Shown here: one piece after another, positions 7,272 through 31,558 of the stretch
Layout of the letters: each line of letters begins with the position of its first letter
Numbering within the stretch: position 1 is the first letter of the stretch
NCBI GenBank assembly: GCA_002426575.1
Contig: DIRE01000063.1
Span: forward strand, 32,401-78,384
Reading direction: 5' to 3'
DNA length: 45,984 nucleotides
Source of the DNA: Clostridiaceae bacterium UBA5444
GTDB lineage: Bacteria; Bacillota; Clostridia; Clostridiales; Oxobacteraceae
Translations under genes and position numbers: made by a program
The notes under the pieces: generated by a model
Seen by the model: the letters and a program-made list of their open reading frames with translations, nothing else
Told to the model about the DNA's origin: nothing
The model's database searches: none

Positions 7272-8579
7272 TTATTTATTTTCCTTTTCCTTATGCCAAT
7301 ACTCTGACCATGACTTTGCAGCATCTTGAGTTGTCATCTGGTTTAGTAACATTTTCTGCAGATCTTGATCGCATTTCTTGATGAAAGGCCCCCACCCTTT
7401 ACTATCAAAAGGCATTGTTACTCCCACATATTTGTCTGGCTCTGCAGACATAGCCATATAAGCCTTATAAGGCTCTGTTTTAAAGAAATCATCTTCAGAT
7501 GCTGTTTTATAAATAGGAATCATTGAATTCTTTTTGCAGAAGTAAGTACTATTTTCCTCATTTAATAAGAAAGATAGGAATCTCCACGTTTCTTCTTTAT
7601 GTTCTGAATATGATGTCATACCCCATCCTGCATATCCTGCAGGTGAATAAGATTTGCCAGATGGCCCTATAGGGAGCGGCGCCGTAGCCCATGTTCCATG
7701 TTCCATCTTTTCTTGACAGGTGGCTATAACTTCAGGATCTTGTATAAGCATTGCCGTAACTCCTGAATAGAAGTTTTCAACCATCTCTGCAAATCCCCAG
7801 CTTATAGAATCTTTTGGAGATATGTCATTGTACATCTTTTTATAAAATTCTAATGCATCAATTGCTTCTTTTCTATCAAATATAGTATCCCCATCCTTTG
7901 TATATATAGCACTACTGATATCAATGTCATCGCCTATGGTATCATGTATTACCATGGTTGCATAACTCTGGCCATTAGGGCCACCTCTAAAAGAATAGCC
8001 ATATCTATTTTTAGGCGGATCTGTAAGTTGCTTCCCTATGTCATATAATTCTTGCCAAGTCTTTGGTGGCTCTAACCCTTTTTCTTTAAACCAATCAGCC
8101 CTATAATATAGGCATCTAATATAAAAGCCATAGGGTATTAAATAAGAATTCCCTCCAACTTCTTTAGCTTTAACCTTTGCCATGTCTACAAGTTTATCCA
8201 TGCCATCCCAATTCTCCATATAAGTATCAAGGTTTTCAAGATAGTTATTGTTTAAAAATTGCTTTACAGTGTGGTCTCTTACCTCAACTATATCTAGAGG
8301 TTGTTTTGCCATTAGCATTTGGTTTATCTTATCATCTGCATTTTCTAGAGGAGGAGATATTAGCTCAACTTTTATATCTTTATTTTTATCCTCAAATTTT
8401 CCTATTATTTCATTAAGTATAGCTGTCCTTGCAGGGCTTGTAAGGCTCTCTACCATCCTTATAGTCACAACTTTGTCCACCTTTTCTAAATTATCTGCAG
8501 CTTTATCCCCGCATCCCACCATTGTAATTAAAAGCATTAATACTAAAATAAACGAAAGAACTTTCTTGCTAGACCTCAT
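7272..8579 (-). CDS. Extracellular solute-binding lipoprotein of a carbohydrate ABC transporter (family 1 SBP)
   Basis: Signal peptide plus lipobox (LLITMVGCGDK). 435 aa with SBP_bac_1-like composition. First gene of an SBP-permease-permease operon. Confidence 0.8.
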   Translation of the reverse strand: MRSSKKVLSFILVLMLLITMVGCGDKAADNLEKVDKVVTIRMVESLTSPARTAILNEIIGKFEDKNKDIKVELISPPLENADDKINQMLMAKQPLDIVEVRDHTVKQFLNNNYLENLDTYMENWDGMDKLVDMAKVKAKEVGGNSYLIPYGFYIRCLYYRADWFKEKGLEPPKTWQELYDIGKQLTDPPKNRYGYSFRGGPNGQSYATMVIHDTIGDDIDISSAIYTKDGDTIFDRKEAIDALEFYKKMYNDISPKDSISWGFAEMVENFYSGVTAMLIQDPEVIATCQEKMEHGTWATAPLPIGPSGKSYSPAGYAGWGMTSYSEHKEETWRFLSFLLNEENSTYFCKKNSMIPIYKTASEDDFFKTEPYKAYMAMSAEPDKYVGVTMPFDSKGWGPFIKKCDQDLQKMLLNQMTTQDAAKSWSEYWHKEKENK

Positions 8580-8587
8580 AAATATCC

Positions 8588-8775
8588 CTCTTTTAATTAA
8601 TGTTAAAATACTAGTTTTACATGCAATTATTATTTAGCAAATAAAGTCAGTACTGCATCCATTCCCCACCATATTTATATGTTGACTATGTTATAAATAT
8701 TCAGGCACTTGTATGGATTTATCTACCATGGATATGGTGTAATTTAACATATGGGAATATTTTTGAGCATATAAA
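8588..8775. promoter_or_regulatory. Leader/promoter module copy 1, about 80% identical to 25383-25563. Contains the 5' UTR of the SBP gene and a degenerate AraC promoter plus the first ~9 codons of araC
   Basis: Direct alignment of the two intergenic regions by eye (ttaattaat...aagtcagt...tataaatatt...gagcatataa). Confidence 0.7.
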
Positions 8776-8807
8776 ATGCCATTCCCTAGCAAAGGGGATG
8801 GCATTTT
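8773..8807. other. 14-bp stem-loop (aaaatgccattccc tagcaaa ggggatggcatttt) located exactly where the homology to the araC leader breaks; possible terminator or insertion-boundary structure
   Basis: Inverted repeat seen directly; followed on the plus strand by aagttactttttctc. Confidence 0.5.
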
Positions 8808-8917
8808 AAGTTACTTTTTCTCTACAGAAATCCAAATCTTTATATATCGTTTTTCAACGTCGGGGATACTATGCTTCTTGACTTTGGCTGCTCACATTTG
8901 TTGGGAGCATTTTTATT

Positions 8918-18233: not shown

Positions 18234-18340
18234 TGGGTAGTAGTATTGAGCATATAATAAACGAAATGGGCAATATTGATTTGAACGTTTATTGGTAGAA
18301 GTGGAAAAGCGTACTCTAGGCCATCATTATAGCCTAGCAA
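18234..18340 (+). pseudogene. Decayed 5' fragment of an AraC-family regulator gene (first ~35 codons, interrupted by a stop) homologous to the start of 25564..26418
   Basis: atgggtagtagtattgagcatataataaacgaa...ggccatcattatagcctagc aligns with atggacaatattgttgaacatataataaacgaa...ggtcatcattatggcccagc. The translation MGSSIEHIINEMGNIDLNVYW* is truncated. Confidence 0.65.
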
Positions 18341-18348
18341 TAAAAAAA

Positions 18349-18396
18349 AATCTTAAATCGCTGCCCCCCTAGCTAAGGGAACGGCGATTTAAGATT
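18349..18396 (-). terminator. Rho-independent terminator (about 15-bp stem aatcttaaatcgctg/cggcgatttaagatt followed by a 9-U tract on the minus strand) for the glycosidase operon
   Basis: Inverted repeat seen directly. The A9 run on the plus strand upstream is the U-tract on the minus strand. Confidence 0.7.
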
Positions 18397-18426
18397 CTTT
18401 GCATAACGAAAAATAATTTACGTATT

Positions 18427-18480: not shown

Positions 18481-20244
18481 TTAATTATCTTCCAATTCTA
18501 TTATTATAACACCTGACTTTTTTATATTTAATTTAATTAGTCCAGTTTTATAATCCACCTGCTCACATAGTATTAAGTTACCACGGCAATCATACTGTGA
18601 CATTTTACCTCTTATATCCTCTTCTATAACAAGATATATTTCCTCTGTCATTGCACCATTTACTATTATTAGTTTTTTAGGTATGTTAACCCCTGTTTTT
18701 ATATACATATCATCATACAAAGCAATGATACGTTTATCGTCATTCTCGGCCACAACAACAGGATACATTGCCTCAGGTGATGCTGGCATTAATTTTCCTT
18801 GTAATAGTACATCCCTATTATCTATCCAGAAGGAAGTCCAGAATTTAGTCACTTCCATATGCTCTTTTGACAACTTATCAAGTCTCATTGAAAACTGCGG
18901 GACTGAAAAAAGTATATTTATAAACTGCGATGCTACGCTCTCTGCAGTATCATTATTCGACCACATAAGCATATCAGAGTGCACGGCAGTATCTCCCGAA
19001 AGAAGCCTTAAGTCTATTGTCTCAATCCTGTTTGTAACTGGATCATTTGGACAATCTGAAGCCCTAAACATATTTCCATACTTTCTCATACACGGTCCTA
19101 TATACCTTTGCCTAAATTCAATCATTATATCGGGTTTCAGCTTTTTAAGTCTTTCCATTACACTGCTAAGGAGTAAATCCACTGCCTCCTGAACTGATTC
19201 CGTATCCCTTCTATTGTCTATCTCAAGAGCCTTTGTACATGCTCCCCTTAAATCGAACTGGTCTACAAAATCCAGTTTTAGTCCATCAATATTCCAGTTT
19301 AAAACTGCTGATTCATATATGTTTATCAGATATTCTCTAACCTCAGGGTACCTTGGATCTAGTACCCCTGCTCCCAAATAATCAATATTATATAAAACCT
19401 TATCACTAAACCTTTCCCATGCTTTTGATTTAAACCCAACAAACGGTACGCTGTACCAGATCATATATTTCATGCCAATTTCATGAACCTTTTTTACATG
19501 CCCCTGCATATCTTTAAATTTATTGCTGCAAATCTCCCAATCGCCACAAAATGCATATCCCCTGTTATTATCATCCGTCTGCCAGCCATCATCAACTATA
19601 ATCGTTTTATAGCCAAGCTCTTTTGCAGCTTTGCACTGCTCTTCTATTTCATAATCCTTAAGGTTTTGGTGAAAGCTATACCATGTCGAGTACATAGGCA
19701 TTTCAGCATATTCAGGTACATGAGATGGTTTATAGCTGCCCAAGGTTTCATACCACTTTGATGCATCGTTTATTGCCTCGTAATATGGTACATTTCTGCA
19801 GTCTATCCTTATGGTTCCCTCATAATGCTTCTGTTTTTTAGAAGGCTCAGTGAAGAGCGTAATCTTACATCTAATTTCCCCCGTTTCTTCCTTTACACCC
19901 ATATTAAATAGAACGCTATTTAAAGCATCAGAATAAGAAACTGAAAGTCTGTTTCTTTTATCTCCACTGTAAAATACTACAACAGGAGCATTTACAGTGC
20001 CTTTAAAAGATATATTCCCCATCCAATCCACTGGAAGGCTCATATTCCTCCCAGAGCCTGGATGCCAGAATGATTGTATATCGATTATGTCATGATACCA
20101 TATAATATCAACCGGAGAAAAAGCAATTTCATCATCACAATTGATATCCAGCTTAACATATAGTATCCCGTCTATTTCATTGGTGCTTATATCAACTTTT
20201 AAACTATCATCTTTTATGACTTCAAAATCACAAGGCTGTTTCAT
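18481..20244 (-). CDS. Putative alpha-galactosidase / melibiase-like glycoside hydrolase (clan GH-D TIM barrel, GH36/GH27-like)
   Basis: Motif TIIVDDGWQ (DDGW signature of alpha-galactosidases). 587 aa. Sits in a sugar ABC uptake operon. Confidence 0.5.
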   Translation of the reverse strand: MKQPCDFEVIKDDSLKVDISTNEIDGILYVKLDINCDDEIAFSPVDIIWYHDIIDIQSFWHPGSGRNMSLPVDWMGNISFKGTVNAPVVVFYSGDKRNRLSVSYSDALNSVLFNMGVKEETGEIRCKITLFTEPSKKQKHYEGTIRIDCRNVPYYEAINDASKWYETLGSYKPSHVPEYAEMPMYSTWYSFHQNLKDYEIEEQCKAAKELGYKTIIVDDGWQTDDNNRGYAFCGDWEICSNKFKDMQGHVKKVHEIGMKYMIWYSVPFVGFKSKAWERFSDKVLYNIDYLGAGVLDPRYPEVREYLINIYESAVLNWNIDGLKLDFVDQFDLRGACTKALEIDNRRDTESVQEAVDLLLSSVMERLKKLKPDIMIEFRQRYIGPCMRKYGNMFRASDCPNDPVTNRIETIDLRLLSGDTAVHSDMLMWSNNDTAESVASQFINILFSVPQFSMRLDKLSKEHMEVTKFWTSFWIDNRDVLLQGKLMPASPEAMYPVVVAENDDKRIIALYDDMYIKTGVNIPKKLIIVNGAMTEEIYLVIEEDIRGKMSQYDCRGNLILCEQVDYKTGLIKLNIKKSGVIIIELEDN

Positions 20245-20330
20245 ATTGACCTCCGCTCCGCTGCTACTTATGCAGCATAAATTATGTTAAATACAAATAT
20301 AGTAAAAGCAAGGCTAATAAGCTTATTTCA

Positions 20331-21731
20331 CTATATATTTATTTTTGCAGTATACCTTTCATTAGTATCAACTTCGACCCCTGAATATGAATAGGTTTGG
20401 CCGTCTTGTTTAGTTTCCCACTTAGCCTTAACCTCTGTATCATTTACTAGAATAGTATCTACTTTTCCCTTAAACATTGCCCTCCACGTAATAGGGGTAC
20501 CCGTTATATTTATAAATGAAGTTTCATAGACTCCCTTATGCTTTACAGTTATTTCATTACCTAGTACAGGCAAGTTTTTTATCTCTGTCCAATCCACATC
20601 GCAAGTCAACCTTCCTGTTGTTTCGACAAGCCTATTTTTAGCATCTGGTTTAATACCCATCATGCCTGTTGCTATACTTCCAATTACAGCATAGGACACC
20701 TCAGGATATTCCCTTCTTTTAAGTGCTGGATCTATAAGTTTCATGAGATACTTATAGGCTTCGTCGGAGCATCCATACCTATATAAAATCTCGGGAAAAT
20801 ATGACATTGACTCAACATTTGTACCTTTGCAGCTTATAACAGATTTCAAAGCTTTTTTAATCTTATGGCTGCCTTCTGCTATCCCAAAATATAAAGGCAT
20901 GGAAGATGCAGTGTTAAAATCATCATCGCACCCTTTAGGGATATAAAATTCTCCATCTAAGCAGGTAAAGCCATAGTAACTTTGTCTATCATCACTCCAC
21001 CACTTTGAATTGAACATATCTTTAAGATTTTCTGCCTTTTCTTCATATATCTTAGATTTTTGAACATCCCCATTAAGCTTCAATATTGTTGCATAAGCCA
21101 TAAAGCCTGCATATTGGGCACAGATCATATCATGACCTACAAAATTATCTATTGTTCCTACACAGTCCTCCATGTAAGAAGCAATCCCTCTGTAATTTAC
21201 TGGACCTTTATGCTCCATAATGCCATCATTGTTTATATCCCATGCTTTAATATAGTCTTCTACTGTACGTTCATAAAAGTTTAAAAACACGTCACTATTA
21301 ATATAGTCCCTATCCCCGGTCCATTGGTACTGCCTATAGCAGCAATCAAGAATGTCAAAATTTGCAGGTAGGTTATACCAAAAGTCTTCATCGCTTTTAT
21401 AGTCAACAGGTGCTGGAGAATCAAACTTATTTATTTCCCAATAACTACACCAATCTCTTTTTTCACTTATATTTTGTGCAAACTTTTCTAACATGTTTTT
21501 GTTGAATTTATAAAGTCCAAGCACTTGGGCTCCTGTACTCTGGTGGGCTACATCACGCATGCAAAATGCATAACGACTTGGAAGTGATGCCTCATACCAA
21601 TCACCAACAGTATCTCCCGTGAAAACATATTTTAGAGCTTGACTCTTTGCCCAGTAAAAACCTTCATTGAGTTTTATATTAGAAGAATCAAATTCAACTT
21701 TACTGTTTATTGTCTCACTGCTTTCAAGCAT
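20331..21731 (-). CDS. Hypothetical protein, probable glycoside hydrolase-like enzyme (family undetermined)
   Basis: 466-aa ORF with good coding character, co-operonic with a glycosidase and sugar ABC transporter. No motif I can assign confidently. Confidence 0.35.
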   Translation of the reverse strand: MLESSETINSKVEFDSSNIKLNEGFYWAKSQALKYVFTGDTVGDWYEASLPSRYAFCMRDVAHQSTGAQVLGLYKFNKNMLEKFAQNISEKRDWCSYWEINKFDSPAPVDYKSDEDFWYNLPANFDILDCCYRQYQWTGDRDYINSDVFLNFYERTVEDYIKAWDINNDGIMEHKGPVNYRGIASYMEDCVGTIDNFVGHDMICAQYAGFMAYATILKLNGDVQKSKIYEEKAENLKDMFNSKWWSDDRQSYYGFTCLDGEFYIPKGCDDDFNTASSMPLYFGIAEGSHKIKKALKSVISCKGTNVESMSYFPEILYRYGCSDEAYKYLMKLIDPALKRREYPEVSYAVIGSIATGMMGIKPDAKNRLVETTGRLTCDVDWTEIKNLPVLGNEITVKHKGVYETSFINITGTPITWRAMFKGKVDTILVNDTEVKAKWETKQDGQTYSYSGVEVDTNERYTAKINI

Positions 21732-21758
21732 ATACCTTTCCCTCCATACTGAAAATGA

Positions 21759-22655
21759 CTACTCCTTCACGGCTCCTACTCTCATTCCATGTATAAAGAA
21801 ATTCTGGAAAAATGGGTATATTATAATTATTGGAGCTGTTACTACTACCGTGGCAGCAGCACGCACTGTTACTGGGGAAAGCTCGCTGTATTTTGAATGC
21901 AGCAGCTGCTGATCCCTTATTCCTGTTATTGCTTCCACTTCAAGTAATAGTCGTTTTAAATATACCTGGAGGGTGTCAAACTGACCTGATGGGTTATATA
22001 TCATACAATCAAACCATGAATTCCAATGGCCAACAGCAACAAATATACATACTGCAGCAATAACAGGGGTGGCCATGGGCATTGCAATTTTAAAGAATAC
22101 TGTTAGTTCTGAGGCACCATCTATTCTTGCTGATTCAAATATGGCTTCCGGTATATCCTGCATATAGGCCCCAATAAGAAGCATGTAGTATGGGGCTAGA
22201 AGGCCTGGTATCCAATATACATTAAATGAGTTTGTCATGTGCAGCCTTACCATTAATAAGTAAAATGGTATCAGCCCTCCTCCAAAGTACATTGTAAAAA
22301 CAAATAGCTTCCTCATGAACCTTCTTCCTGAAAACCACTTTATAGTAATTACATAAGCTAATAAAGATGTACAAAATACACATGTAATTGTACCAACAAT
22401 AACCCTTAATACTGACATAATAGTAACCTTCAATAGTTTTACATCTTCAAAAATATATTTATAGGCAGACGTTGAAAACTTTCTTGGGAAGAAGTATATT
22501 CCGCCTTTTACTGCATCCGTGCTATCGTTAAACGATACTGCAAGTTGGTTAATAAATGGGTAAACCATTATAAATATAACCATCAACATCAAAATAATAT
22601 TAATAAAATCAAATATTCTACTACCTATACTTTTCCTATAATAATCTTGATCCAT
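21759..22655 (-). CDS. Carbohydrate ABC transporter permease (MalG/LplC-like)
   Basis: 298 aa, polytopic, with EAA loop (ESARIDGASELTVFFKIAMP). Confidence 0.85.
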   Translation of the reverse strand: MDQDYYRKSIGSRIFDFINIILMLMVIFIMVYPFINQLAVSFNDSTDAVKGGIYFFPRKFSTSAYKYIFEDVKLLKVTIMSVLRVIVGTITCVFCTSLLAYVITIKWFSGRRFMRKLFVFTMYFGGGLIPFYLLMVRLHMTNSFNVYWIPGLLAPYYMLLIGAYMQDIPEAIFESARIDGASELTVFFKIAMPMATPVIAAVCIFVAVGHWNSWFDCMIYNPSGQFDTLQVYLKRLLLEVEAITGIRDQQLLHSKYSELSPVTVRAAATVVVTAPIIIIYPFFQNFFIHGMRVGAVKE

Positions 22656-22697
22656 AAAATCACCTCATCAATTTATATAAAGAGATAACTTTCTTTT

Positions 22698-23648
22698 TTA
22701 TATAACAGTAACATCAAAGAATTTCTTAACTGCTTTATTTACCAAAAGTACTAGTGCAAAACTTATTACAGATTTAAAAATGCCAACAGCTGCAGCATAA
22801 GAATAGTTACCCATCTGTATGCCATAACGGTATGAATAAGTATCAATAACATCCCAATACTCTCTAGTCTGTGGTGCGCCTAGCAATAGCTGCTGCTCAA
22901 AGCCTGCATTCAATATTCCTCCAAGGCCTAAAACAAACAAAAGTCCAATGGTATTTCTAATACCTGGTAAGGTAATATGCCATACCATTCCAAATCGTCC
23001 TAAACCGTCTACTGCCCCGGCATCGTATAATTCGCTATCAATACCAGCTATAGCAGACAAATATATAATTGATGACCATCCAACTTCCTTCCATATATTA
23101 GCAGAGGTTAGAATTGTCCAGAAATACTTTCCTTCTCCTAAAAACGAAATAGGGTTGTCTATCTTTCCCATCTTTAAGAGTATCTCATTTAATAACCCAT
23201 CTGTACTTAGAAATGAGAAAAGTAAGCTTGCAGTAACAACCCATGAAACAAAGTGAGGCAAATAAGATATTGTCTGTACTGTTTTTTTGAAATGCTTATT
23301 TTTAATTTCATTTATTAACAAGGCAAGTATAATTGGTGCAGGAAAGCCAAATAATATTCCAAGACCACTTATTGATAAAGTGTTTCTTAATACCATTTTA
23401 AAGTCAGGGCTTTCAAAAAACTGTCTGAAATACTTCAAGCCCACGAACTTGCACTCAAATATGCTTTTGCCTGGTATGTAGCGCACAAATGCCATTAAGT
23501 TACCATACATAGGATAATAGCAGAATATTAACACCCATATTATCATGGGTATACATATAAGCCATACTTCTTTTTCTTTTATAAAGGTTCTCTTAGCCTT
23601 TTGAAATTTGGTTTCAGTTTTTTTAGTCTGAGTAGTTAATTCAGCCAT
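22698..23648 (-). CDS. Carbohydrate ABC transporter permease (LplB/MalF-like)
   Basis: 316 aa, polytopic, with EAA loop (YDAGAVDGLGRFGMVWHITLP). Confidence 0.85.
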   Translation of the reverse strand: MAELTTQTKKTETKFQKAKRTFIKEKEVWLICIPMIIWVLIFCYYPMYGNLMAFVRYIPGKSIFECKFVGLKYFRQFFESPDFKMVLRNTLSISGLGILFGFPAPIILALLINEIKNKHFKKTVQTISYLPHFVSWVVTASLLFSFLSTDGLLNEILLKMGKIDNPISFLGEGKYFWTILTSANIWKEVGWSSIIYLSAIAGIDSELYDAGAVDGLGRFGMVWHITLPGIRNTIGLLFVLGLGGILNAGFEQQLLLGAPQTREYWDVIDTYSYRYGIQMGNYSYAAAVGIFKSVISFALVLLVNKAVKKFFDVTVI

Positions 23649-23724
23649 TATATTCCTCCATTCTCAACAATGTATATACTTTATTAATAGAGAAGGCAAA
23701 TTCTTGCCTTCTCTATTAATATTT

Positions 23725-25377
23725 TTACTTTGATAACTTTTCAAGGTTCTTTTTATATTCTTTGCTGATATACTCTTGAACTTCATTTACTCCTGCTTTG
23801 TCAAGCATACTCTTTAGCTGCTCATAGTTCTTGTCAAATTCCCCTTCAGTCTTACTTAACACTGCTTTTGCCCAATATGTTTGAGCTGTATCATAAACCT
23901 GCTGCATCTTAACCTTTATAGGATCATCAAATTCAGGGAAGATCTGGTCAAGTGCTGAACTATCATAAATAGTATCCTTTAAATTATCATTCATTAGTTT
24001 TTTCCATTTTGCATCATTGTTAAAGCACTGGTCAATCCATGCATTTGCACTTTCATCATCACTCATAACACCCTGTGGGTGACAGAACCAAAATTGATTC
24101 GGTCCTAGTAGATAATGTGCATCATAGTCATATGTTCCATTAATTATTCCATCCTTTGCCTTTTCACTATAGCTCCACTTTCCATCTTGGAAGTTCCAAT
24201 TGGAATTTTCCTCGTTTGGTATTCCCCATGCCATAAGCCTTGTACCAGTTGGAGTTATATTAAAGTTAAAGAATCTCATTAAGTCTTCTGGGTTTTTGCA
24301 CTTATCTGTTATAACCGTATAGCCCCATCCTGTTGTATCCTTTGGTGAAAGATATGCTGCAGGGGCATTAGCTGCCTTTATCTTAACCTGTACGTATCTT
24401 TGCTCTTCTTTCCAGTCTTTATTTTCTTTCTGCCAGATTTCGTGGCCAGCATTCCAGCTTTCCCACCATCCTCCTATATGTCCTGCTATCCTCTCTCCTG
24501 CAAACTTTGCCTTCCACTCATCATACTTATTTGAGAATGCGTCAGGATCGAGCATCCCATCTCTATAAACCTGATTGTAAAACTTAGTAAACTCTAACCC
24601 CTCTGGTGTATTAATCCAGTGCGTAAGGTTATGATCTGCATCTTCCTTGTACCCTTCTTTTAATCCCCATATACCTGCTACAGTATCTATTGAACAGTTT
24701 TCATTCCATGAAAGAGCATATACCTTTTCACCTTTTGCATTCTTTGGATGAGCTGCTACCATCTGCTTTAATATTTCATAATATTCTTCTGGTGTTTCAA
24801 ACTTTGGAGATCCCATCTGCTGATACCAGTCCCAACGTATATGAGCACTAGTATCTGGTATTGGGAGCATTCCCCATCCATAAGGAAGTCCATAAATTTT
24901 TTTGTCATCATCTAAATATCTTCCATAATCTTTGCCAAGTTCCTTTTTTATATCTTTGCCAACTTTATCAACATAAGGAGTTAAATCTATTATCTTACCC
25001 TGCTCTTTCCACTTGTCCACATCTGTTTTGGACATATTAGTAATAACTTCTGGATACTCACCTGATGACAGCATCAAGTTTAGTCTTTCGTCTCCGTCTG
25101 TATCATACACTATTTTGTCAATCTTTACGTTAAAATTATCCAGCATATACTTCTGCATCTGTGCGCTGTTCTTTTTTGCCTTATCAGGATTGCCTTTTCC
25201 CTTTACGTAGTAAGAAAACTCAGTTGTGTTAACTGGTATATCCCACCCATATTCATTTTTACCTTTACTCTCTGGCGGAGTATCATCAACTTGCACAACC
25301 TCTTCTTTACCGCATCCCGTAAATAAACCTGCAATAATACATGCCACCGTTAAAACACACAATAACCTCTTTTTCAT
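23725..25377 (-). CDS. Extracellular solute-binding lipoprotein (LplA/LipO-type large SBP) of carbohydrate ABC transporter 2
   Basis: Signal peptide plus lipobox (IIAGLFTGCGKEE). 550 aa. First gene of the operon. Confidence 0.8.
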   Translation of the reverse strand: MKKRLLCVLTVACIIAGLFTGCGKEEVVQVDDTPPESKGKNEYGWDIPVNTTEFSYYVKGKGNPDKAKKNSAQMQKYMLDNFNVKIDKIVYDTDGDERLNLMLSSGEYPEVITNMSKTDVDKWKEQGKIIDLTPYVDKVGKDIKKELGKDYGRYLDDDKKIYGLPYGWGMLPIPDTSAHIRWDWYQQMGSPKFETPEEYYEILKQMVAAHPKNAKGEKVYALSWNENCSIDTVAGIWGLKEGYKEDADHNLTHWINTPEGLEFTKFYNQVYRDGMLDPDAFSNKYDEWKAKFAGERIAGHIGGWWESWNAGHEIWQKENKDWKEEQRYVQVKIKAANAPAAYLSPKDTTGWGYTVITDKCKNPEDLMRFFNFNITPTGTRLMAWGIPNEENSNWNFQDGKWSYSEKAKDGIINGTYDYDAHYLLGPNQFWFCHPQGVMSDDESANAWIDQCFNNDAKWKKLMNDNLKDTIYDSSALDQIFPEFDDPIKVKMQQVYDTAQTYWAKAVLSKTEGEFDKNYEQLKSMLDKAGVNEVQEYISKEYKKNLEKLSK

Positions 25378-25382
25378 TGCAT

Positions 25383-25563
25383 TTCCCCCTTTTAATTAAT
25401 ATTAAAATACTAATTTCATATGCAATTACTTGTTGCTAAATGAAGTCAGTGCTACCTTTATTACCCATGCTGTCTATATATTGATTATATTATAAATATT
25501 CTGGTATTTGAATGGAGTTATTTATTACAAACATGGTATAATGTAATATAAGGGGAGAATATT
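25383..25563. promoter_or_regulatory. Leader/promoter module copy 3 (intact). It holds divergent promoters for the SBP gene on the minus strand and araC on the plus strand: extended -10-like catggtataatg at ~25532-25543 and RBS aaggggag
   Basis: Sequence features read directly, plus about 80% identity to 8588-8775. Confidence 0.6.
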
Positions 25564-26418
25564 ATGGACAATATTGTTGAACATATAATAAACGAAAGAA
25601 ACGGTCTTGATTTAAATGTTTATCATGTTGGAATGGAAAAATGTACTCCAGGTCATCATTATGGCCCAGCCGTGAGAAATCATTATCTGATTCATTATGT
25701 ACAAAAAGGCCAAGGTACTTTTTATGTTGGAAATAAGTCGTACAGTCTTTCAAAAGATCAGGGTTTTCTTATCTGCCCTGATACTATAACATATTATGAA
25801 GCCAGTAGTTCTAATCCTTGGGAGTATATGTGGGTAGGTTTTAATGGCTTCAAGGCAGAGTCATATTTAAAATATGCAAACATAACCCAAGAAAACCCAA
25901 CCTTTGTATATGATAAGGACAGAGCCCTAGAAGAATGCATGAGCAACATGATTGCTGCATGCAAATACAAAAAGTCAAACGAGATAAGGCTTAAAGGTCT
26001 AATCCATATCTTCCTATCTGAACTTATAGATAATTCTAATATTAATGGTGTTGAACAAAAGTATCCTAAGGATATTTATATAAGGAAAGCAGTTGAATAT
26101 ATTACTAATAATTATGCTAGGAATATAACTGTAAGAGACATTGCAGATTATCTGTGTATTAGCAGAAATTACTTTTGCAGTATTTTTAAAAAAGCCATTG
26201 GAAAGCCTTCTCAGGAATATCTAATACAATATAGAATGGATAAAGCATGCGAATATATGTACAATAACGATTTGTCCATTAGCGATATTTCCCACTCAGT
26301 GGGGTACGAGGATCCTTTCACATTTTCTAAGGTATTTAAAAAAACAAAAGGGTTAAGTCCTAAACAATATAGGCAATGTCAGCAAAAGTCCATAGAGCCT
26401 AAAGAGGCACAAAAGTGA
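25564..26418 (+). CDS. AraC/XylS-family transcriptional regulator (N-terminal cupin sugar-binding domain + C-terminal dual HTH)
   Basis: 284 aa. The C-terminus (ITVRDIADYLCISRNYFCSIFKK...YLIQYRMDKACEYM...SISDISHSVGYEDPFTFSKVFKK) is typical of AraC HTH_18. Divergent from the sugar operon. Confidence 0.85.
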   Translation: MDNIVEHIINERNGLDLNVYHVGMEKCTPGHHYGPAVRNHYLIHYVQKGQGTFYVGNKSYSLSKDQGFLICPDTITYYEASSSNPWEYMWVGFNGFKAESYLKYANITQENPTFVYDKDRALEECMSNMIAACKYKKSNEIRLKGLIHIFLSELIDNSNINGVEQKYPKDIYIRKAVEYITNNYARNITVRDIADYLCISRNYFCSIFKKAIGKPSQEYLIQYRMDKACEYMYNNDLSISDISHSVGYEDPFTFSKVFKKTKGLSPKQYRQCQQKSIEPKEAQK

Positions 26419-31117: not shown

Positions 31118-31558
31118 TTATCTTGCAGACTTAATCTCAACTATATCACTCCAGTTTCTTGAAGTGAGCTCTACTATAGTTGGCAGCTCCTTTTGTATGC
31201 TTTTTACTCTTGAGGAGGTGTCAGTAACGGCAAGCTCTATAACCTCTAACCTATTATCTAAAGAATCCATGCTATCATCTTTTTCCCTGCCTAATTGATC
31301 AGAAAAAGATGACTGTACTTCTGCTACAATCTCTACCTTTTTATTTAAATCCTCAAGGAGTATTGTATTCCTATCAGTCTTATTCTCAACCCTATCAAGA
31401 TGCTGGTTTATATCCTTTATTTCACCTTGCATAGACTTTATGTCGCTTTGCATTGTTTTCATACTGCCTTGTATTGTTCCAATATCGCCTTGCATTGTTT
31501 TCATATCGCTTTGTATTGATTTTAATATTTCTAAAATTTCTTTATCCATATGTATCAC
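31118..31558 (-). CDS. Small coiled-coil protein of unknown function with N-terminal degenerate 8-residue tandem repeats (MKTMQGDI / GTIQGSMK / TMQSDIKS / MQGEIKDI)
   Basis: 146-aa ORF. About 24-nt nucleotide repeats visible (gcattgttttcata...). Heptad-like charged residues downstream. No TM segment. Confidence 0.6.
   Translation of the reverse strand: MIHMDKEILEILKSIQSDMKTMQGDIGTIQGSMKTMQSDIKSMQGEIKDINQHLDRVENKTDRNTILLEDLNKKVEIVAEVQSSFSDQLGREKDDSMDSLDNRLEVIELAVTDTSSRVKSIQKELPTIVELTSRNWSDIVEIKSAR

Follow-up and report, generated by a model that had tools for sequence, protein, structure and literature searches.

Three related copies of one control region lie within the 45,984 nucleotides of the Clostridiaceae bacterium UBA5444 genome that we analyzed (the window). 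Copy B (25381-25563) is the intact ~186-bp control region between a divergent araC gene and an operon that begins with the gene for a solute-binding protein (SBP-B); we delimited it from open reading frames, Pfam matches, and alignments. Copy A (8582-8775) is a complete copy of this divergent control region, as seen from its alignment to B, and it lies directly upstream of a different operon, which encodes an ABC transporter and begins with SBP-A. Copy C (18142-18352) is partial and lies upstream of the gene for an InhA-like M6 peptidase (14287-18012, minus strand). It went unmentioned in the initial annotation, and we identified it with a repeat finder (families D4 and D8). Among the three copies, only copy B has a complete regulator gene.

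Our preferred explanation, which we consider probable, is that A and C are partial paralogous copies of the divergent control region of an AraC-type sugar regulon, with a regulator similar to BgaR, and that the surviving AraC protein controls these orphan copies in trans. We regard several features as established: the homology of the copies and its boundaries, the stumps of araC at A and C, the hairpin that these two copies have in common, the non-homology of the transporter genes, and the conservation of just the core in orthologous loci. The case is a clean and datable example of how bacterial transcription is rewired: a cassette with promoter, candidate operator, 5' UTR, and Shine-Dalgarno (SD) sequence was placed precisely at the beginning of a foreign operon, and the regulator stumps reveal the donor. 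No general principle is changed by this: the reuse of a promoter is ordinary, although this fresh instance of a known phenomenon is a clear one.

Homology of the control regions

We compared copies A and B by several methods. A local alignment of the surrounding DNA (8400-9000 against 25200-25800) matched 8582-8772 to 25381-25574, with 147/189 positions identical (77.8%). Without gaps, the identity is 74% over 183 nt (repeat finder, family D3), and the mean column identity in a MAFFT alignment of A and B is 79%. The initial annotation had put the identity of the two leaders at about 80%, and it proposed that a value below about 60% would speak against a shared module. The first figure was slightly generous but essentially right, and the measured 74-79% is above the second. 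The local alignment of A and B scored 140, while alignments of shuffled sequences had a mean score of 20.4 (standard deviation 3.0) and a maximum of 36. Copy C aligns to B with 81.6% identity over 190 nt and to A with 78.6% identity over 98 nt. Sub-patterns of the control region had 3 and 2 matches in the window (vs. 0.01 and 0.00 expected). Chance is excluded as the source of the similarity of A, B, and C.

The homology between A and B begins with the SD sequence, which is 5-6 nt away from the start codon of either SBP gene, and continues into the first 8 codons of araC. Within copy A, the SD sequence is GAGGGA (8585-8590, minus strand), the equivalent of the 5' UTR is 8585-8684 (~100 nt), and the promoter/operator core is 8685-8748. 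On the upstream side, the annotated neighbor of A is a collagenase-like gene, and that of B is araC. However, stumps of araC are found in A (24 nt) and in C (~110 nt), so part of the upstream gene was duplicated along with the control region.

In contrast to the control regions, the transporter genes have little in common. SBP-A (7272-8579, minus strand; 435 aa) matches SBP_bac_1 from Pfam, while SBP-B (23725-25377, minus strand; 550 aa) has no Pfam match. The two proteins have a 55-aa patch in common and nothing more (E = 0.002), and the first 300 nt of their genes could not be aligned, although both are still solute-binding proteins in the broad sense. The permease pairs of the two loci are 29% and 26% identical (amino acids). 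So the contrast between leaders and coding genes that had been noticed is correct. If the coding regions had been as similar as the leaders, a simple duplication of the whole locus would have been the obvious reading; they are far less similar. Duplication of the whole locus (a segmental duplication) is ruled out by the unrelated SBPs, by permeases with just 26-29% identity, and by nucleotide homology that ends at the SD sequence.

Although the contrast is real, to describe it as noncoding DNA that is better conserved than coding DNA is misleading, because the transporter genes were never in the duplicated unit. The divergence of the SBPs and the permeases is thus a comparison of unlike with unlike. 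The relic of araC in copy C is 76% identical to B, which is about as diverged as the noncoding parts: if we divide the control region into part 1 (the SBP-proximal ~93 nt) and part 2, then A and B are 74% identical in part 1 and 76% identical in part 2, and B and C are 70% identical in part 2. As far as these identities tell, nothing demonstrates extra constraint on the noncoding DNA, or selection on A or C, since the duplication. Genome scans should be read with this in mind: where noncoding DNA seems better conserved than coding DNA, the reason can simply be that the intergenic region was the unit of duplication.

The stumps identify the donor. Copy A lies between the start of SBP-A and a terminator hairpin, and there is no araC gene at A, only a 24-nt stump (8751-8774, plus strand; ATGGGAATATTTTTGAGCATATAA). 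This stump comprises codons 1-8, from which 1 nt has been deleted, and the hairpin follows it without a gap. Within it, AATATTTTTGAGCATATAA matches codons 3-8 of araC from B at 16/19 positions, and TTGAGCATATAA is common to the stumps of A and C. Other than this stump, no regulator gene adjoins operon A in the window.

Copy C contains the araC-proximal half of the intergenic region (its core, 18142-18232) and the first ~37 codons of araC, as a pseudogene stump that begins with the ATG at 18233. The stump reads MGSSIEHIINEMGNIDLNVYW, then a stop codon, and then, after a frameshift, VEVEKRTLGHHYSLAIKK; its counterpart in B is MDNIVEHIINERNGLDLNVYHVGMEKCTPGHHYGPAVRN. The 5'-UTR half is absent from copy C, as nothing in 18013-18141 resembles part 1 of either A or B. 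Such stumps (8 and ~37 codons), which contain a frameshift and a stop and still adjoin their promoter, are like the truncated pseudogenes that arise from partial duplication. Unlike ordinary relics of genes, these have a retained promoter/operator that faces outward, towards functional genes.

Both stumps are followed by related hairpins. The hairpin that abuts the stump of A (8772-8808) was identified by a terminator scan as a bidirectional terminator and has an inverted repeat of 16 nt (94% complementary). The hairpin after the stump of C (18345-18400) has an inverted repeat of 28 nt (82% complementary) and is homologous to the hairpin of A. The alignment of the two (8784-8810 and 18367-18393) scored 33, while shuffled sequences had a mean score of 16.6 (standard deviation 2.5), and 0/500 shuffles reached 33. 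Within the window, these are the only two copies of the hairpin. The sequence that follows the intact araC gene is unrelated to the hairpins, and we found no homology between it and the DNA downstream of A and C. The relics of araC and the homologous hairpin show that A and C descend from a truncated B-type module that had been joined to a terminator.

The ancestral unit is locus B, with araC back to back with an operon that comprises SBP-B, permeases, and a glycosidase. The duplicated segment extended from the SD sequence of the transporter operon to the 5' end of araC. It thus comprised the 5' UTR and the bidirectional promoter core but no transporter genes. One descendant is now exactly before the non-homologous SBP-A operon, and another is upstream of the InhA-like metalloprotease gene. 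In both, araC has decayed to a stump that is fused to the common terminator hairpin, and copy A lost most of its stump later.

Age and origin of the copies

To place the copies in time, we considered the relatives of this locus. All contigs that encode the exact AraC or SBP-A proteins are from one species (at least 99% identical) and have the same arrangement. No copy was polymorphic across 17 contigs, but all of these are at least 99% identical, so this is uninformative about constraint.

The closest homologues of SBP-A (62-64% identical) have no AraC neighbor and no similar upstream DNA. Upstream of one of these is a co-directional GntR/FCD regulator, and upstream of the other is an aminotransferase gene. 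As their surroundings lack both the regulator and the cassette, the AraC-type cassette is not native to the SBP-A operon. The upstream regions of more distant homologues of SBP-B had no similarity to the cassette either.

The closest homologue of SBP-B (P0242, 80%) is in a contig that we call L109, and its gene is divergent from a fragment of an AraC protein that is 80% identical to the AraC of locus B. L109 is thus the ortholog of locus B in a sister species. The only DNA of B with a significant alignment to L109 is a core of ~45 nt (score 49, vs. a maximum of 35 for shuffles), and about 64 nt of B align to L024, whose AraC is 75% identical. The conserved core, TATATTAYAAAT ... ATGG-N17-ATGGTAWAATGTAATAT, includes the -10 boxes of both promoters and the DNA between them. 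In contrast, part 1 of B is just 39% identical to L109, which is the level expected by chance (the mean for shuffles was 37.7% and the maximum was 42.8%). Between A and B, part 1 is 73-74% identical, vs. a maximum of 63% for shuffles. Because the 5'-UTR half is at the chance level in L109, the copying between A and B is younger than the split from the L109 species. The similarity of the 5'-UTR halves of A and B thus reflects an intragenomic copy and not long-term constraint.

It had been suggested that the leaders are a recently copied regulatory cassette. "Copied" is borne out by the relics of araC and by the common hairpin, but "recently" is not: the longest exact match between A and B is 12 nt, and their divergence is 22-26%, so the copying was not recent.

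Gene conversion had also been raised, and older copies A and B might have been kept alike by occasional conversion. Homogenization would give the pattern that we described above, with part 1 alike in A and B yet unalignable with L109. We found no positive evidence for it. With 12 nt as the longest exact match and a fairly even identity along the element (60-90% per 20 nt), there are no long tracts of identity as conversion would leave, and the overall divergence of 22-26% argues against recent exchange. We consider concerted evolution to be very unlikely.

A third suggestion was a functionally constrained operator or 5'-UTR element. For the promoter/operator core (~45-64 nt), which is conserved in the orthologous loci, this is supported. 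It is not supported for the 5'-UTR half, which is at the chance level in L109, shows no folding signal, and matches no Rfam family. A cis-acting RNA in both 5' UTRs (a riboswitch, an attenuator, or the target of a small RNA) would explain why the ~100 nt by the start codon are similar, and the most similar 50 nt of A and B (43/50, or 86%) are in fact at -53..-4 from the ATG of the SBP. However, with ~4 independent windows, this is not significantly above the average of 76%. Each of the two UTRs can fold into an imperfect hairpin of similar form, ACUGACUUYAU...AURNAAAYUAGU, and into an AU hairpin that precedes the SD sequence. Their fold energies on the sense strand equal those of shuffles, though (z = 0.09 and 0.36), and the minimum free energy folds of both strands had z-scores from 0.09 to -1.68 (0.36 for the other sense UTR). 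The consensus fold of the two sequences has just -3.15 kcal/mol and one compensatory pair. So the folding and covariance analyses that were proposed for the minus-strand UTRs gave no sign of a conserved structure. At gathering thresholds, Rfam had no match in the whole window. At E <= 1, the two regions yielded only a chance match to NrrF of 16 bits, whose gathering score is 60. Given also that the UTR half is unconserved in the orthologous L109, we consider a cis-acting RNA to be highly improbable.

Both UTRs also contain a small open reading frame in the same frame, which could be taken as another hint of function in the leader. It encodes MVGNGCSTDFIC in A (8672-8634, minus strand) and MGNKGSTDFI in B (25468-25436, minus strand), and three of the codon differences between the two are synonymous. 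These reading frames have no SD sequence and start ~8 nt from the inferred start of transcription, and they are probably due to chance.

Could the copies be a small non-autonomous mobile element, similar to a MITE or REP element, that carries a promoter? Within 17 kb, three copies precede genes that are unrelated to each other, and the contigs with the closest AraC homologue end or become dissimilar immediately upstream of the core promoter. But the copies have no terminal inverted repeats or target duplications in common, their extents differ, and their content is recognizable as the 5' end of araC and its promoter. BLAST found no similarity to records for plasmids or phages. Also, when we used A, B, and C to derive a pattern and scanned 185,579 species genomes for it, there were only two matches, both directly upstream of homologous araC genes. 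(The species studied here is evidently outside of this collection.) A pattern from part 1 had no match in a metagenome collection that does not include the samples with this organism. We give almost no credence to a mobile element.

The copies do resemble propagated promoters, or "putative mobile promoters," which were defined as having at least 50 nt with at least 80% identity upstream of non-homologous genes (Matus-Garcia, Nijveen & van Passel 2012, PMC3488235). The best 50-nt window of A and B has this length and identity, and the downstream coding sequences of A and B are non-homologous by this definition. In an example from Treponema in the same study, conservation extends from ~5 nt off the start codon to beyond -120 (PMC3488235), and the conservation between A and B has the same extent. 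Outside of the best window, the overall identity of A and B (74-78%) is below the threshold for those families, and just 2-3 copies are known here. Unlike the promoters of PMC3488235, the donor can be identified (the divergent intergenic region of araC and the transporter), and the copies carry coding stumps of araC and a terminator.

A candidate operator and its regulator

The araC gene next to copy B (25564-26418, plus strand) encodes 284 aa, with matches to AraC_binding (2.3e-26) and HTH_18 (3e-20) from Pfam. It scores 108 bits against the equivalog model for AraC, which has a cutoff of 208, and it is a generic AraC-family protein. The nearest solved structure is the sensor domain of BgaR from Clostridium perfringens (6nwh; E = 1.3e-17, residues 13-135). 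BgaR is a lactose-responsive regulator of the AraC family and is divergent from bgaL. Like BgaR, the regulator of locus B is a clostridial AraC-type protein that is divergent from its target gene, with a response to sugar that is predicted. The similarity is remote and involves the N-terminal domain only, and the target genes differ. We presume that this regulator is the trans-acting factor for all three copies.

Copy B has a predicted promoter of the sigma-70 type for the SBP-B operon (25484-25512, minus strand), with -35 TTCAAA at 25512-25507, a 17-nt spacer, and -10 TATAAT at 25489-25484 (10/12 matches in a promoter scan). Transcription would start near 25477, which implies a 5' UTR of ~100 nt. 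At the homologous position in copy A (8685-8713, minus strand), the sugar-operon promoter would have -35 TACAAG at 8713-8708 and -10 CATAGT at 8690-8685. These outward-facing boxes are weaker than those of B, and the promoter scan did not call them. The promoter of copy A may be weak, or SBP-A may be driven otherwise. In copy C, the corresponding boxes are TGTAAA (-35, 18183-18178) and TATAGT (-10, 18160-18155), also on the minus strand.

Each copy also contains a pair of direct repeats, which we call s1 and s2. In copy A, these begin with ATGG and are 21 bp apart (8713-8748, plus strand; s1 is ATGGATTTATCTACC at 8713-8727 and s2 is ATGGTGTAATTTAAC at 8734-8748). The pair in copy B is the candidate AraC operator (25512-25547, plus strand; s1 is ATGGAGTTATTTATT at 25512-25526 and s2 is ATGGTATAATGTAAT at 25533-25547), and the pair in copy C is at 18183-18197 (s1) and 18204-18218 (s2). 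Relative to transcription of SBP-B, s1 (~-35..-49) abuts or overlaps the -35 box, and s2 (~-56..-70) overlaps the extended -10 of the araC promoter, TGGTATAAT. In copy A, s2 likewise overlaps the relic of the araC -10, which is TGTAAT (8738-8743). A search of the window for the s1/s2 pattern gave exactly 3 matches (A, B, and C), vs. 0.01 expected. In a loose search of the window for further half-sites, there was no enrichment (21 matches vs. 14.5 expected).

The same arrangement is found at related loci. The ATGG before the araC -10 is preceded by another ATGG, exactly 21 nt away, in A, B, C, L018, L024, and L109, and the last three of these have ATGG-N17-ATGG at a fixed position before the start of araC. 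L018, L024, and L109 were found by protein homology and not by the pattern; two others, L008 and L009, came from the search with the pattern and are hence biased instances. As a sequence pattern, tandem half-sites ~21 bp apart are present at all eight of these loci. The identity of s1 and s2 to each other ranges from 10/15 in B and 11/15 in L109 to 12/15 in L009 and 14/15 in L008. Among lags of 8-35, a lag of 21 was the best, with a mean self-match of 10.6 (vs. 7.2-9.5). We also examined 80 more distant AraC loci (34-53% identical), and just 6/80 have ATGG-N17-ATGG, as compared to a background of 0.015 per 210 nt. The motif is restricted to this lineage.

We assigned the candidate operator by conservation and geometry. 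Because s2 coincides with the extended -10 of araC, which is a Gram-positive TRTGnTATAAT motif, its conservation is partly explained by the function of the promoter alone. An operator role for the promoter core is plausible.

The architecture of locus B has a textbook counterpart. In E. coli, araC-araBAD (with araI1-I2 and araO1) is the standard example of an operon and a divergent regulator of the AraC/XylS family. As in E. coli, the regulator gene of locus B is divergent from the sugar operon, and the two direct-repeat half-sites are 21 bp apart, with the proximal one at -35 (~-35..-70), as in araI1-I2. The candidate site also lies over the regulator's own promoter, which allows for autoregulation, as for E. 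coli araC. The sequences of the sites are dissimilar to those of E. coli, and the operator of locus B is a candidate from its sequence pattern. We did not identify a distal site like O2. Another difference is that the same candidate operator is present at additional loci without a regulator gene: a divergent AraC/XylS regulator adjoins copy B, while A and C have only the stumps.

If the preferred explanation is correct, then the single remaining AraC would bind s1 and s2, activate the transporter promoter when the sugar is present, and repress its own promoter. Autorepression would be possible because the distal repeat lies over the extended -10 of araC. Since s1, s2, and the outward-facing promoter have been kept, copy A, and possibly copy C, might be orphan operators under trans control. 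SBP-A, and perhaps the protease, would then have joined the same regulon.

Alternatively, A and C might be purely historical relics: decaying leftovers with no present role in regulation, with SBP-A constitutive, driven otherwise, or silent. As discussed above, the conservation of the noncoding segments (70-76%) does not exceed that of the dead stump of araC. The outward-facing boxes of copy A are degraded and were not called as a promoter, and the relic -10 of araC in copy A has become TGTAAT. All of this would be expected for a relic. But a relic would not explain why the boundary of the copy is exactly at the SD sequence of an intact, non-homologous operon, or why A, B, and C have all kept the s1/s2 repeat with its spacing. 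Because the upstream terminator hairpin blocks read-through, copy A is the only promoter region that is available to SBP-A. Also, the arrangement is fixed in every recovered contig of the species, from several independent samples. Overall, we think it is unlikely that the copies are just relics.

If the orphans do still bind the regulator, then two distinct importers of sugar, and perhaps also a secreted protease, would be coordinated by one AraC. We tentatively suggest that the regulon expanded by orphan operators in this way, so that the SBP-A operon and the gene for the secreted InhA-like metalloprotease are wired to the surviving AraC. The relic araC promoters at A and C, which both lead into a hairpin, might add short non-coding transcripts of ~60 and 150-230 nt that derive from the pseudogene stumps. 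We view this broader scenario as possible but rather doubtful.

Possible rearrangements around the copies

With their hairpins, copies A and C (8677-8810 and 18147-18393) form direct repeats that are ~78% identical. These bracket exactly two genes, both for large proteases with CW_binding_2 domains: the M9 collagenase-like gene (8918-14071) and the InhA-like M6 gene. The arrangement suggests that the proteases may have arrived, or moved, by recombination at the relic. The collagenase-like gene also has three tandem repeats of ~630 nt (10159-11893; 71-89% identical), which correspond to repeated PKD-type domains. In L002, which is from MAG GCA_036826775.1, a 13-nt deletion at the equivalent of ~17634 splits the InhA-like peptidase gene into pieces of 666, 340, and 142 aa. 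This could be either a strain-level pseudogene or an assembly error.

The genes around araC differ between related organisms. In L024 (3740-6527), araC is divergent from a melibiase-like gene whose sequence is 77% identical (nucleotides) to 18481-20244 of the window. Within the window (18481-26418), a cassette of SBP-B, permease, and a 466-aa glycosidase lies between araC and the melibiase-like gene. The set of genes under the divergent araC promoter has been reshuffled more than once.

Two other contigs, L018 and L019, encode the same protein, P0001, which is the closest homologue of the window's AraC (74% identical). Starting ~70 nt upstream of the araC ATG, the two contigs have the same sequence, but further upstream (~1-140) they are entirely different. 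In three other assemblies, the break is 127 nt upstream. In that organism too, a rearrangement or a repeat seems to have its boundary at the edge of the core promoter.

On a larger scale, the block of genes for sugar transport, proteases, and AraC (~21 kb) is flanked, according to Pfam labels, by gcvT-H-PA-PB on one side (30801 to 26486, minus strand) and by genes for lipoamide dehydrogenase and lipoate-protein ligase on the other (4742 to 2114, minus strand). It looks as if the block was inserted into a gcv-lpd-lplA cluster. Outside of the block, an open reading frame of 146 aa (31118-31558, minus strand) contains at least four tandem units of 21 nt (31425-31529), so its product would have a periodic repeat of 7 residues.
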